From: Thermoplasmata archaeon
Lineage (GTDB): Archaea; Thermoplasmatota; SW-10-69-26; JACQPN01; JAJPHT01
Direction of reading: 5' to 3'
DNA length: 64,000 bases
Assembly: GCA_034667685.1 (NCBI GenBank)
Contig: JAXDQU010000106.1
Span: 32,001-96,000 of the forward strand
Shown here: piece by piece, positions 24,292 to 27,811 of the stretch
Numbering within the stretch: the first letter of the stretch is position 1
How the letters are laid out: each line of letters opens with the position of its first letter
Translations under genes and position numbers: made by a program
Notes under the pieces: generated by a model
What the model was told of the DNA's origin: nothing
Database searches by the model: none
Seen by the model: only the letters and a program-made list of their open reading frames with translations

Positions 24292-24374
24292 GCGCGCGCA
24301 CGGCCGGCGGGCACACAAAGGCGTTGTGGTGCTGTCGCAACAATCCTCCACAACGATGATCGGCGCGCGCCCCG

Positions 24375-24740
24375 ATGTCCGAGGCGGTGTCGGTTGTGCG
24401 GACCCCTCTCTTCCTCGGCATGCTCCTCGTGACGTCCCTCGTCGCCCTCGCGCCCTCGGGCAACGCCGCCGCGAACGGCTGCGTCGACGCGGGCAGCGGC
24501 ATCACCGCGTGCGGCGCGGCCGTCGCGGTCGGGTGCGGCGTCAGCACGGGTGTGGGCGCGGCGACCGGCATCGTCGCGTGGACGCTCGTGAGCAGCACCG
24601 AATCGGGCTCGAAGTCGTTCAGCCTGCGCGCGCCCGCCTTCGCCGGCGCCGCCGACGCGCCGTGCACCACGGCCTCGTGCACGACGGGCTTCCTCTACGC
24701 CAACGGCGTGCTTGTCTCCGAGAGCCAGACCGTGTGCTGA
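24375..24740 (+). CDS. Small secreted Cys-containing hypothetical protein
   Basis: Signal-like LFLGMLLVTSLVALAP; 6 Cys. Confidence 0.6.
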   Translation: MSEAVSVVRTPLFLGMLLVTSLVALAPSGNAAANGCVDAGSGITACGAAVAVGCGVSTGVGAATGIVAWTLVSSTESGSKSFSLRAPAFAGAADAPCTTASCTTGFLYANGVLVSESQTVC

Positions 24741-24853
24741 GGCTCAGAGCCGCTTCTGAGCCGCGGAGAGAAGGCGAAGCGTCCTCGCACCCAGGGGCCG
24801 CGCCCCCTTGACAAGGTACGCGGGCGGTGTTCACGCGGCGGAGCCCCCTGACC

Positions 24854-25678
24854 TCACGCGATGGGGTGCGAACTGACGTCGTTGACGGCCTTCTTGAGCC
24901 GCTTCAGGTCGAGTCTCTTCCTTGCGTGCGCATCGCGCTGCCAGGCGTCCAACGAATCGATGACCGTGTGCGCCTCGACGAGGTAGCATTCCGCGGCCTT
25001 CCACGTCAGGAGCTGATCCCCCTCCCTCCACGTGTGGACGAGCCAGATGCCGTTCTCGTCGTAATCGCGCGCCCACATCGAGTGCCCGCCGCCCGAGTTG
25101 GGCAGCCAGTCGCCGATCGCGGGCTGCCCGACGGGAATGTCCCAGGCCTTTGGGGGCGAGATGGACTCGAACGCCTTCGGGAGCGCAAGGCACACCGCGA
25201 TCCCATGGGCGCCGCTCGAGGCGATCGCGCGGCGAACCTCCTGCTGGTCGAGGTGGTTGACCCTGACGTACGCGTCGATGGTCAGCGCGCGTCCGCTGGC
25301 GTCGCGGATCGACAGCTCGGGGCGGCGCCAACGGTCGAGCGCGTCGGTCTCGTACGCGCCCTCGTCGTTGCCCCCGTAGAGGTCCGCGCACATCTTCTCG
25401 AACACGCGAAGCGGCTCGTCCTCGGCAATCTGCGGGACGTGCCCCGTCTCGAGCCGCTCCATGCGCAGCATGGCGACGGCCTGCTTCGCGATCGTGCAAT
25501 CGTTGTGCTCTGTGTTGCCGTAGGCATGCCTGGCGAAAGGCGCCCTGCGGTTCCAGAAGCCCGTCGCCTTGGGAGGCTTCACGGTCCCCCGCGCGAAGGC
25601 TCCGAACATCAGGGCTTTCGCCGACGTCTTCGGGGGCAGGCATCCGGTTCTCCTGTTCGCGAGTGGTGTTCGCATCAT
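24854..25678 (-). CDS. Papain-like cysteine peptidase
   Basis: GNTEHNDCTIA (Cys), DEGAYETDALDRW, GGGHSMWARDYD (His), HTW...LLTW; ATGA overlap with upstream gene. Confidence 0.65.
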   Translation of the reverse strand: MMRTPLANRRTGCLPPKTSAKALMFGAFARGTVKPPKATGFWNRRAPFARHAYGNTEHNDCTIAKQAVAMLRMERLETGHVPQIAEDEPLRVFEKMCADLYGGNDEGAYETDALDRWRRPELSIRDASGRALTIDAYVRVNHLDQQEVRRAIASSGAHGIAVCLALPKAFESISPPKAWDIPVGQPAIGDWLPNSGGGHSMWARDYDENGIWLVHTWREGDQLLTWKAAECYLVEAHTVIDSLDAWQRDAHARKRLDLKRLKKAVNDVSSHPIA

Positions 25679-26400
25679 GGTTCTTCCTTCAGCGTGATCT
25701 CGGGTCGAGCGGGCGCGCGCGGTGGCGGCGCAACGGGCCCTGGGACGCGGAGCGCGCCGCGCGTGGCGTCTTGCCAAGAACGCAGCACGTCGGGCGCGAT
25801 GGGCTCGGGCAGGATGGGCGCGAGGTCCTTCGCGAGCCGCGCGGGATCCGCGGCGAGGAAACCGGCAGGGTCCTTGATCGCGGTCTTTGCGATCGCTTCC
25901 AGGAGCGCCGGAGGGATCGTCGGTAGCGCGAGGATCGCCGCCTTGTCGAGCGCGCGATCGAGGCTCGCGCCAAGCCTGAGGTTCGCGAGCGCTGCGCGCC
26001 CCGCGGCGGTCTGCGAGATGCGCATCAGGTCGTCCACCGAGAAGACGCGATGCGCGGCAAGCTTCTCAATCGCCTGATGCGGGAGCCCAAGCGTCGAGAG
26101 CGGCTGCGGCGCGCTCGGAAGCGGCGCGCGTGGCGCGTCTTGCGAGGGCCGCACGCGCAGGCGAAGCGTCGCGCCGCCCGGCGCCGCGTCGTTCGAGAGG
26201 CTCACGAGGACTTGGCCCAGCTCGTCGAGACGCGCGCGGACGGGCAGCGTCAACTCCAGGTCGTCCAGGATGTAACAGCCTGACGCTCTCGGATGCCGCG
26301 CCAGCTCCTCGTGGATGCCCATCGCGGCGGAGGCGACGGTTTCGCCCAGCTCGTGCAGGACGACCTCGGAAGGGAGCGACGAGAGAGGCTCAACCGGCAC
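25675..26400 (-). CDS. Protein with short alpha-beta-beta N domain and two helix-hairpin-helix (DUF4332-like) repeats
   Basis: GGAGGTGA SD before GTG 26400; PLSTLGLPHQAIEKLAAHRVFSVDDLMR and ILALPTIPPALLEAIAKTAI. Confidence 0.65.
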   Translation of the reverse strand: MPVEPLSSLPSEVVLHELGETVASAAMGIHEELARHPRASGCYILDDLELTLPVRARLDELGQVLVSLSNDAAPGGATLRLRVRPSQDAPRAPLPSAPQPLSTLGLPHQAIEKLAAHRVFSVDDLMRISQTAAGRAALANLRLGASLDRALDKAAILALPTIPPALLEAIAKTAIKDPAGFLAADPARLAKDLAPILPEPIAPDVLRSWQDATRGALRVPGPVAPPPRAPARPEITLKEEP

Positions 26401-26482
26401 GCCCGTCACCTCCCGACGCCAGAAAGGCAAGGCCGGAATGAGACGACCGCGGCTGCGCGAGAACCGCCGCCATCGTCGCGCC

Positions 26483-27625
26483 TCAGATGTTGATCCCGAC
26501 GTCGGCGTTCACGTAGCCGAAGGACGCGTGGACGACCGTCGCGGCGGGAGGCTTCGTCTTGTCGAATTGCGCTCCTTCGCGGGACACCGTGATGACCACC
26601 TTGCCCGCGCTGTCCGTCTTGTCGGTTGTGGACTTGTACGTCCAGCTCAGGAAGGGGTCGCTCAGCGTGATGTCGATGGACTTGCCCGCGAGCGCCGTGC
26701 TGTCCACCTTCAGGAGCGTGAGGGTGACGTCCACGGCGCGCCCCGTGGGGTCGGGGGGCGACCCTCCAGGGGGCGTAGCGGGGACCACGTCCACGCGGGG
26801 TCCCGCGGTCAGCTTCAGCGAGGGGCCCTTCTGCACGATGACCGGCTTAGGAATCTGCATGTCGGGGCGCGGCTCCAACGTCGCGTCGAGATGCATGGAG
26901 CCCGCGGCCTGATCCGTGGACGTGCTCGAATCGCCGGATGCCGCGTAGGAGCCGAAGCTGTAACCGATGCTCCCCGACGCGCCCACGCCGTGCAGGCGGC
27001 TGTACGTGGCGGCCGCGCCCACCGAGAAGCCTTGGCTTTTCCCTTGGACGTTGAACCCGTTGGCGGTGTTGAACTCCGAGACCTTCATGTCGGCCGAGAT
27101 GTGGACGGACTTCCACAAGTAGGCGGGCGGCGTGATGTAGTTGATCAGCGGGAGCTTCATCACAACGGGGTGTCCGTCCACCAGCTGGCCATCGTCGTCG
27201 AGCTTCTGCTCGAAGACCGCGATGACGTCGATCATCTGCTGCGAGAGCGCCGAGGCCGTGACGACGAGGCCTGCGTCGAGCTGGGCCTGCGCTTCCGCGA
27301 CGGCATCGCCAACCTTGCTCACGAGCAGACCGAACGCCGGTCCCCCTCGGGCGAGCTCGTCGGTGATGTCAGCATCCGGAGCGACCACGGGCGTCACGCC
27401 CATCTTCGCTTCGCCGACGTGCAATGCCGTGGGGTGCCCGGTCCCGCCTGCCGTGAGGGCCCCCTGCCGGAGATCGCGAGCGTCCTGCTGCGCGAGGCGG
27501 ATGGCCCGGAGCTGCGCGGCCTGGGCGGCGTCGATGGCTTCCTGAACGTCCTTGGAGATGGGCGCCTTTCGCTGGCTGGCGTTCGACGATTCGTGCTTGC
27601 TCTTCTTGACGTGCGTGAGTGCCAC
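26483..27625 (-). CDS. DUF2589-like protein with long beta-hairpin and C-terminal Ig-like domain
   Basis: GGAGGT SD before GTG 27625; PAFGLLVSKVGDAVAEAQAQLD...LPLINYITPP...VHISADMKV; C-terminal LAGKSIDIT...TDSAGKVVITV. Confidence 0.65.
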   Translation of the reverse strand: MALTHVKKSKHESSNASQRKAPISKDVQEAIDAAQAAQLRAIRLAQQDARDLRQGALTAGGTGHPTALHVGEAKMGVTPVVAPDADITDELARGGPAFGLLVSKVGDAVAEAQAQLDAGLVVTASALSQQMIDVIAVFEQKLDDDGQLVDGHPVVMKLPLINYITPPAYLWKSVHISADMKVSEFNTANGFNVQGKSQGFSVGAAATYSRLHGVGASGSIGYSFGSYAASGDSSTSTDQAAGSMHLDATLEPRPDMQIPKPVIVQKGPSLKLTAGPRVDVVPATPPGGSPPDPTGRAVDVTLTLLKVDSTALAGKSIDITLSDPFLSWTYKSTTDKTDSAGKVVITVSREGAQFDKTKPPAATVVHASFGYVNADVGINI

Positions 27626-27811
27626 GTGATCAGACCTCCGGGCTCGCGAGGAGAAAGGATGTGATACCATTCCTCGCCGCGAGTCCGGTATGCGTGGACC
27701 TATGGGCTCCTCGGGTTTACGCCTTGCAGCGTCCATACGGTTGCTATAGGCGTTCCGAGCGGCAACGCCGACCATGCAAGGCCGAAAGCAGGGTCTCCGC
27801 GCGAAGGCGCG

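Follow-up and report, generated by a model that had tools for sequence, protein, structure and literature searches.

The window analysed here, 64,000 nucleotides from a Thermoplasmata archaeon (contig JAXDQU010000106.1, positions 32,001 to 96,000), carries three co-oriented minus-strand open reading frames (ORFs), A, B and C, which are best read as a horizontally acquired, reduced form of a widespread, unstudied cassette. The cassette is probably a so far undescribed means of breaching the cell envelope, because its bacterial relatives almost always carry a leaderless wall-cutting enzyme. We tentatively propose, at somewhat less than an even chance, that A and B open the membrane so that leaderless envelope hydrolases can act, and that C takes the place of the enzyme in a host presumed to make no murein. 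The layout described in an earlier sequence-only reading of this DNA, with two genes preceded by Shine-Dalgarno sites and the last coupled through ATGA, was confirmed, with GGAGGT before A and B and ATGA at the B/C junction. The three genes and their start signals are located as follows.

26483..27625, minus strand: gene A, 380 amino acids, GTG start at 27625, stop at 26483-26485
27634..27639, minus strand: Shine-Dalgarno-like GGAGGT, 8 nucleotides upstream of the GTG of A
25675..26400, minus strand: gene B, 241 amino acids from the GTG at 26400; an alternative TTG at 26430 gives 251 amino acids
26408..26413, minus strand: Shine-Dalgarno-like GGAGGT, 7 nucleotides upstream of the GTG of B at 26400
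24854..25678, minus strand: gene C, 274 amino acids, predicted leaderless papain-fold cysteine peptidase; its ATG overlaps the TGA of B (ATGA)

We compared 28 A-bearing metagenome loci, most of them short contigs and several close kin, in which genes were called with a simple ORF picker. A and B form a conserved pair. Of the 13 loci whose sequence continues more than 1.3 kb past A, 12 have B following A, and the thirteenth (L018) ends inside a B-like ORF. Directly after A, 21 of the 28 loci carry a gene that we call M, which encodes an SLT lytic transglycosylase of about 395 amino acids (PF01464, E 1e-11 to 1e-16), and no signal peptide was found at the start of the M proteins. The commonest enzyme partner of A is thus a leaderless SLT transglycosylase, not a protease. 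Among the seven A loci without M, L008 and L014 have a small gene, S, directly after A, and the other five have at most 350 nucleotides downstream; the usual bacterial order is A, leaderless SLT (M), often S, and then B. The L008 cassette, like that of the window, is without SLT, and its neighbours (DUF131, DUF123) look tentatively archaeal. The C-terminal half of M, about 190 amino acids (L009:8807-10090, L004:4417-5604, L021:1478-2659, L026:8934-10130), gave no Pfam match; it has conserved His and Asp residues and an invariant ending, and may be a second catalytic, peptidase-like domain.

Proteases of changing families also adjoin the cassette. A Peptidase_C1 gene (PF00112, E 1.1e-15) directly follows B in L006, as does a trypsin-like ORF with a GDSG motif in the L009 group (the five near-identical loci L009, L011, L012, L016 and L022), whose Trypsin, S3 and S7 matches stay below threshold. 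A protease therefore lies directly after B in three of five informative lineages (the window, L006 and the L009 group), and not in L004 or L008, where no recognisable protease was found with full flanks. A caspase gene (PF00656) is divergent from A in the L009 group, a probably secreted subtilase (S8) lies upstream of A in L027, and an N-terminal S8 is fused to a complete A in P0179 (1079 amino acids) and P0221 (truncated). Because SLT is firmly linked to A in most bacterial loci while changing proteases adjoin A/B or are fused to A, membrane opening by A and B would be the simplest single role for the pair.

Some of these neighbourhoods are richer. L026 (7809-16708) holds A, SLT, a leaderless S8 subtilase of 856 amino acids, two diverged A paralogues, S, and a B with DUF4332/HHH_5. 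Upstream of A in L009 (2-7685) and its sister loci are the caspase, a protein with DUF4257, a BTAD-AAA_16 NTPase and a Ser/Thr kinase that PADLOC models of PD-T4-6 recognise, which may represent a neighbouring conflict system or part of the cassette. PADLOC assigned only generic caspase, subtilase and kinase models to the neighbours, and nothing to A, B, M or S. Its IetA match to an AAA ATPase in L008 (E 1e-39) was not used, the protein being also like an ordinary AAA+ ATPase. No candidate for a conserved cargo or machine was found beside the cassette, and no zinc-ribbon or small membrane protein was seen here.

A, B and C are real conserved families. Besides the window, their homologues form 20 clusters for A (39-52% identity), 24 for B (37-46%) and 67 for C (43-63%), and the alignments of all three contain strongly conserved blocks. 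Searches of the three proteins against Pfam, NCBIfam, PADLOC and PHROGs gave no usable match. Neither a signal peptide nor a transmembrane helix is evident, the maximum Kyte-Doolittle 19-residue mean being 1.62 for A, 1.40 for B and 1.26 for C, and the sequence-only reading was right that all three lack a signal peptide.

It was also right about the parts of A, a polar extension, a helix, a beta-hairpin and an immunoglobulin (Ig)-like tail, all of which can be seen in the alignment and in the AlphaFold2 model, the hairpin at low confidence.

27377..27625, minus strand: A residues 1-83, variable polar extension, with a low-confidence helix predicted at 25-61
26756..27376, minus strand: A residues 84-290, conserved core (alignment A5); a few of the 252 clusters found by its profile carry Pfam DUF2589
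26930..27040, minus strand: A residues 196-232, hairpin, candidate membrane-inserting element (predicted local distance difference test, pLDDT, about 31)
26486..26743, minus strand: A residues 295-380, Ig-like domain of invasin/intimin (Big_1) type, by fold match

The model of A (mean pLDDT 63.5) contains a long helix at 87-129 and several long strands. Its Gly/Ser/aromatic hairpin, residues 180-242, has very low confidence; hydrophobic residues alternate there with Gly, Ser or Thr. The C-terminal domain is confidently modelled and matches invasin/intimin (1cwv, Z 10.5, root-mean-square deviation 2.5 over 88 aligned residues), and Big_1 matches in relatives of A are below threshold. Complex prediction with four copies of the core gave a score of 0.01, with the fold of the partners uncertain, and so weighs neither for nor against oligomerisation. 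Profiles of A and B found nothing relevant among Protein Data Bank sequences. A reading of A as a capsid protein or a substrate of a type VII secretion system was dropped, as the matches behind it were insignificant, and other weak sequence matches on A were set aside as chance.

The sequence-only reading had called A DUF2589-like, which stands transitively and not for A of the window itself. The protein has no match to the DUF2589 hidden Markov model (HMM; PF11655, curated cut-off 23 bits) at E<=1, and a genome-wide search returned none at E<=10; a wider search for DUF2589, covering 301 genomes from the phylum, also found none. We then used A5, which aligns the window core with 23 locus sequences, as a profile; it found 252 representative clusters (50% identity) at E<=0.001. 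Of 150 listed relatives of the core, 146 were scanned with Pfam, leaving aside the window's own protein and three known homologues. P0242 (26.8 bits) and P0259 (26.6 bits) exceed the cut-off, and the A-core profile matches both (E 1.5e-25 and 4e-19, respectively). Three more, P0135, P0139 and P0149, reach 18-20 bits, under the cut-off, over the same region of the helix and first strands; the matches span HMM positions 3-99. In the ESM Atlas a DUF2589 cluster is the third neighbour of A (0.89, with 198 of 256 features in common). Because relatives of its core pass PF11655 and the ESM Atlas points the same way, A appears to be a divergent branch of the DUF2589 superfamily, linked to it transitively and not a member by the Pfam threshold. 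Two relatives combine the first half of the core with other domains: P0237 continues into a glycine-zipper 2TM domain at residues 196-236 (PF05433, E 1.7e-8), and P0249 into a match to a tyrosinase central domain. These could be domain swaps or assembly chimeras.

B also has two parts.

26140..26373, minus strand: N-domain of B, helix then strands, weakly alignable to S of related cassettes
25756..26109, minus strand: C-terminal region of B, DUF4332/helix-hairpin-helix (HhH) type, by homology

The sequence-only reading had placed HhH repeats in B. They are borne out through its homologues, whereas B of the window itself has no HhH or DUF4332 match in Pfam. PF14229 (DUF4332) matches homologues in L026 (8.8e-17), L008 (3.3e-5; 24.5 bits, cut-off 23.2) and L006 (1.6e-4), and P0112 has a precomputed match; HHH_5 matches also occur among B homologues, and in some B proteins a CarboxypepD_reg domain comes first. 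A BurrH repeat match on B (E 3e-5) was set aside as repeat-driven or compositional, no single stretch passing. The small protein S, of 106-124 amino acids with an N-terminal helix followed by strands, precedes B in seven loci and has no Pfam match at E<=1. A kinship between the N-domains of A and B, as the sequence-only reading had proposed, is not seen directly (hhalign probability 0.8%, no relation). S aligns to the helix and next strand of A (probability 45%, E 2e-4) and, more weakly, to the N-domain of B (15%, E 1.7e-3). The likeness is therefore suggested weakly and through S, because the direct comparison of A with B fails and S aligns weakly to both. The ESM Atlas gave no usable match for the N-domain of B.

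The papain fold that the sequence-only reading saw in C is well supported by modelling. The AlphaFold2 model has a pLDDT of 93.7 and gave 238 Foldseek matches at E<=0.001, among them xylellain (3ois, E 5e-9, TM-score 0.61-0.67), cathepsin K and papain (E 1e-7), with TM-scores of 0.5-0.67 overall, so we assign C with confidence, on its predicted structure, to the papain (C1) fold. Its presumed catalytic residues are encoded at the following positions.

25496..25498, minus strand: codon of Cys61, presumed catalytic nucleophile, invariant, at the start of helix 61-78
25082..25084, minus strand: codon of His199, presumed catalytic histidine, invariant, within GGH

Both are invariant in 45 sequences of the C family. 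Asn55 presumably takes the position of papain's oxyanion Gln, and the position that corresponds to papain's Asn175 shows no conservation. C had no match at E<=1 to any Pfam family, including PF00112, or to any PHROG; a GvpA match on its tail (E 0.008) was set aside as chance.

Relatives of C point to phages. Outside the window we inspected eight C loci, on one contig of an Eisenbacteria genome, six viral contigs and one archaeal contig. The viral homologues lie among tail, terminase and portal genes, and four of the six match phrog_19005 (function unknown; E 6e-10 to 5e-16). In four of the six viral loci C also has small ORFs as neighbours, which carry a single hydrophobic segment, begin like a lipoprotein or contain a coiled coil, much as lysis cassettes do. 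The one match among GenBank phages (29% identity, E 2e-5) lies behind baseplate genes and overlaps the last part of a gene annotated as N-acetylmuramoyl-L-alanine amidase, and structural neighbours of C in BFVD include phage C1-like proteins named peptidoglycan-binding or N-acetylmuramidase. Because of these phage neighbours, phrog_19005, the amidase overlap and the BFVD names, we read C, from position and names, as belonging to a lysis-type peptidase family associated with phages. In the phage locus L051 (MW202816.1, 23913-25132), where the baseplate module ends, the annotated amidase gene overlaps one for a distant C-like 'cysteine protease', which suggests a two-enzyme lysin pair. The C family was found beside A or B in 0 of the 28 A loci and, within the fetched flanks, in 0 of the eight other C loci, and the Eisenbacteria genome with C has no A core at all. 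The expectation that the protease would be conserved beside A and B therefore held in that other proteases recur nearby or fused to A, and failed for the family of C, which is never there elsewhere.

The cassette sits in the host chromosome as an insertion, delimited by comparison with the closest relative, G003.

24332..27798, no strand assigned: segment without nucleotide match in G003, 3467 bp against 588 bp there

The segment is flanked by an aspartate-semialdehyde dehydrogenase gene and a BNR-repeat gene, the same pair as in G003, and the flanks are 85% identical to G003 in nucleotides. A was not found in 40 relatives; among 401 genomes of the phylum its profile was found in one, plus two marginal matches at E 9.6e-4, and that of C in two. 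In this high-GC genome, the GC content is 0.66-0.70 over the three genes and 0.72-0.80 towards the BNR gene, and at third codon positions (GC3) it is 0.83-0.89 against 0.95-0.96 in neighbouring host ORFs, in line with the weaker bias noted in the sequence-only reading. The absence from G003, the rarity in the phylum and the GC3 lower than in host neighbours argue for a foreign origin. Direct or inverted repeats bracketing the insertion were not found beyond short chance-level matches, no tRNA or integrase was seen at it (the integrase judged from the window ORF list), and A and C have no match among plasmids.

As to the gene starts, B probably begins at the GTG at 26400 and not at the longer TTG at 26430, and we take it as 25675-26400 because this GTG is preceded by GGAGGT and yields the 241-amino-acid form found in databases. 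The long start of C (ATG at 25678) is backed by conserved residues upstream of an alternative Met24. No sigma-70-like promoter was found at the locus, and terminator-like sites are at chance level. Between the BNR gene and C lies an ORF of 121 amino acids (24375-24740, plus strand) with a signal-peptide-like start, Cys-rich and with a GC3 of 0.95; the same spot in G003 holds a different, non-homologous small ORF of secreted type. Elsewhere in the window's genome, contig C28 (8775-9155; L037/L038) has a 329-amino-acid ORF with two matches to Trypco2 (PF19631), one of them over the cut-off (26.3 bits) and the sole such match among 301 phylum genomes. This ORF may be a second acquired protease-effector module.

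Several known systems resemble parts of the cassette. The uncharacterised Pfam family DUF2589 shares the helix-then-strands core of A, and a few relatives of that core pass its cut-off; A differs in its Ig-like tail and long N-extension, in having a partner with DUF4332/HhH, and in the missing HMM match of the window protein. In phage holin-endolysin(-spanin) lysis cassettes a leaderless wall hydrolase is encoded beside a membrane-opening protein. Relatives of the cassette share with these a leaderless hydrolase beside a candidate membrane opener, and relatives of C sit in such phage cassettes; in contrast, A and B have no transmembrane helices and were not found in phages, the cassette is chromosomal and stands alone, and where SLT abuts A in 21 of 28 relatives' loci the window has only peptidase C. 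C resembles xylellain and the papain family C1 in its fold, in the Cys at a helix start and in the GGH histidine, and its viral relatives match phrog_19005; it departs from C1 in having no PF00112 or PHROG match, in Asn55 for Gln and in the unconserved Asn175 place. Bacterial gasdermins, reportedly described by Johnson et al. in 2022 as pore formers in operons with caspase-like, subtilase or other proteases, would share the pairing of pore former and protease, yet A, B and C have no gasdermin match in Pfam or PADLOC, and none is among the fold matches, which are Ig-only with a poorly modelled core of A. Reports on Pepco (Trypco1/Trypco2) and EACC1 describe small helix-then-strands proteins beside proteases of changing families, with membrane permeabilisation proposed (10.1101/2025.11.14.688446; PMC7159879); Pepco is there given as about 117 amino acids with an amphipathic N-helix and beta strands, forming a stable oligomeric beta-barrel activated by C-terminal cleavage (10.1101/2025.11.14.688446). 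S of related cassettes, at 106-124 amino acids, has that pattern, and in the window, which is without S, the protease is adjacent; however, A is three times larger, the dominant partner is a transglycosylase, and the window protease has no fused sensor. The link to Trypco-type modules drawn in the sequence-only reading was not supported by the Trypco2 HMM, which has no match in the window and, in the whole genome, matches contigs C28 and C50 alone. Nor did PADLOC support its suggestion of a defence or conflict system, as no model matches A, B or C, and the flanks in the window are housekeeping genes.

On our preferred reading, that A and B open the membrane for leaderless hydrolases, A would be the breaching component, with a long helix and a Gly/Ser/aromatic beta-hairpin of a divergent DUF2589 superfamily branch, and B its obligate partner, made of a helix-strand N-domain and a DUF4332/HhH region. 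Together they would open the cytoplasmic membrane from inside, letting enzymes without export signals reach their substrate, a holin-endolysin logic carried out by unrelated parts. In the window copy, where the transglycosylase is missing, the enzyme slot would be filled by C from its phage lysis-type family, which might attack proteinaceous envelope components or might just have come along with the cassette; the biological role could be programmed lysis or abortive infection. The alternating hairpin and the glycine-zipper 2TM domain that follows half a core in P0237 are consistent with a membrane-active A. The analysis itself establishes the three gene families, the modelled folds of C and of the Ig domain in A, the linkage of A with B and with SLT, the insertion, and the phage setting of the C family, whereas the membrane activity of A and B, the substrate of C and the biological role are inferred.

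A number of observations weigh against this reading. A and B have no transmembrane helix, and it is not obvious what the HhH/DUF4332 region of B would do in a lysis device. A was absent from searches of GenBank phages and viral contigs, and B from a search of viral contigs, so the two are not demonstrably phage lysis genes. Fold searches on the models, proposed in the sequence-only reading, recovered the papain fold for C, but for A (Foldseek, VIA) they gave Ig-domain matches only, its core being modelled at low to middling confidence; the core is thus without a fold assignment, and not thereby a new fold. C lies after B, not in the position of SLT, and L006, L009-type loci and L026 carry both SLT and a protease, so the protease is more than a plain replacement for SLT. 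As wall hydrolases, enzymes of the subtilase, trypsin-like and caspase types would be unusual, and they fit processing better, and the S8-A fusions (P0179, P0221) are open to either interpretation. Proteinaceous envelope components are a candidate substrate of C in the archaeon, and the premise that this host makes no murein is an assumption based on Thermoplasmata in general.

A live alternative, which we nevertheless consider rather unlikely, is the protease-gated pore of the sequence-only reading. A, B or both would be latent pore formers activated through cleavage by the neighbouring protease (here C), in abortive infection or another conflict, following a logic known from bacterial gasdermins and published for Pepco and EACC1 (10.1101/2025.11.14.688446). 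This would explain the proteases of several families beside A/B (L006, the L009 group, L026) and the N-terminal fusions of S8 to a complete A (P0179, P0221) better than passage of hydrolases does. It also fits the protease directly after B in three of five informative lineages, the BTAD-AAA_16 NTPase and PD-T4-6-like kinase of the L009 group, and the size and layout of S, which are as reported for Pepco; the variable polar N-extension of A could act as a pro-piece. However, Trypco2 is not matched in the window, Pfam gave nothing for A, B or S, and PADLOC nothing for A, B or C; L004 and L008 lack a recognisable protease despite full flanks, the family of C is unlinked to A/B elsewhere and looks lytic in phages, and SLT next to A in 21 of 28 loci is left unexplained. 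The two readings could be combined if a protease licensed the pore through which SLT is then released.

That C is unlinked to A/B everywhere else also bears on the possibility, which we regard as improbable, that the three genes are not one working unit, and that an A-B remnant and a phage-derived peptidase landed together. M and S are missing from the window cassette, the host probably (by assumption) lacks the usual substrate, and the genes are not found in close relatives; yet the three frames are intact and retain the residues conserved in each family, the stop of B overlaps the start of C (ATGA), A and B keep their Shine-Dalgarno-like sites, and in L006 a papain-family gene has independently come to lie at the same position behind B. 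Slightly less probable still is a non-lethal aid to envelope remodelling or export, giving a wall hydrolase local passage so that a surface structure or some cargo could be inserted or released. Dedicated lytic transglycosylases are known from secretion systems, and Ig-like and CarboxypepD_reg domains are typical of surface proteins, so that the SLT linkage and the presence of such domains (Big_1-type Ig-like and CarboxypepD_reg) in A and some B proteins would fit, as would the position of the cassettes among ordinary chromosomal genes and not in obvious defence islands; but none of the genes conserved around the cassette is a candidate for such a cargo or machine, and its components carry no export signal. 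The Ser/Thr/Gly-rich amphipathic hairpin, the Ig-like domain as a binding part and the protease neighbours would also suit a beta-pore-forming toxin released at other cells and processed by C. We find this very improbable, as A has no signal peptide, no aerolysin-type or other toxin fold is among the fold matches (with a poorly modelled core), and B and the SLT gene would remain unexplained.

Returning to membrane opening for leaderless hydrolases, the family at issue is sizeable, with 252 clusters at 50% identity for the A core, and we found no discussion of it in the library of papers searched for DUF2589 and DUF4332. If the reading is true, A/B would do the work of holins by a second route with unrelated structures, and would also be a cousin of the newly described protease-licensed pores. 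It is possible, if on balance doubtful, that A/B (with S) represent a new class of membrane-opening proteins, which would use a helix and amphipathic beta-hairpins in place of transmembrane helices to pass leaderless envelope hydrolases, and would be used by bacteria, archaea and, through the wider DUF2589, phages; the hydrolase slot (SLT, papain-type, subtilase, trypsin-like) would be exchanged to suit the envelope, the archaeal copy being one case. The cassette gives DUF2589-type proteins a function to test, and its archaeal copy would have passed from one domain to another with an exchange of enzyme, and so offer a natural experiment on the adaptation of lysis or cell-death modules to different envelopes.

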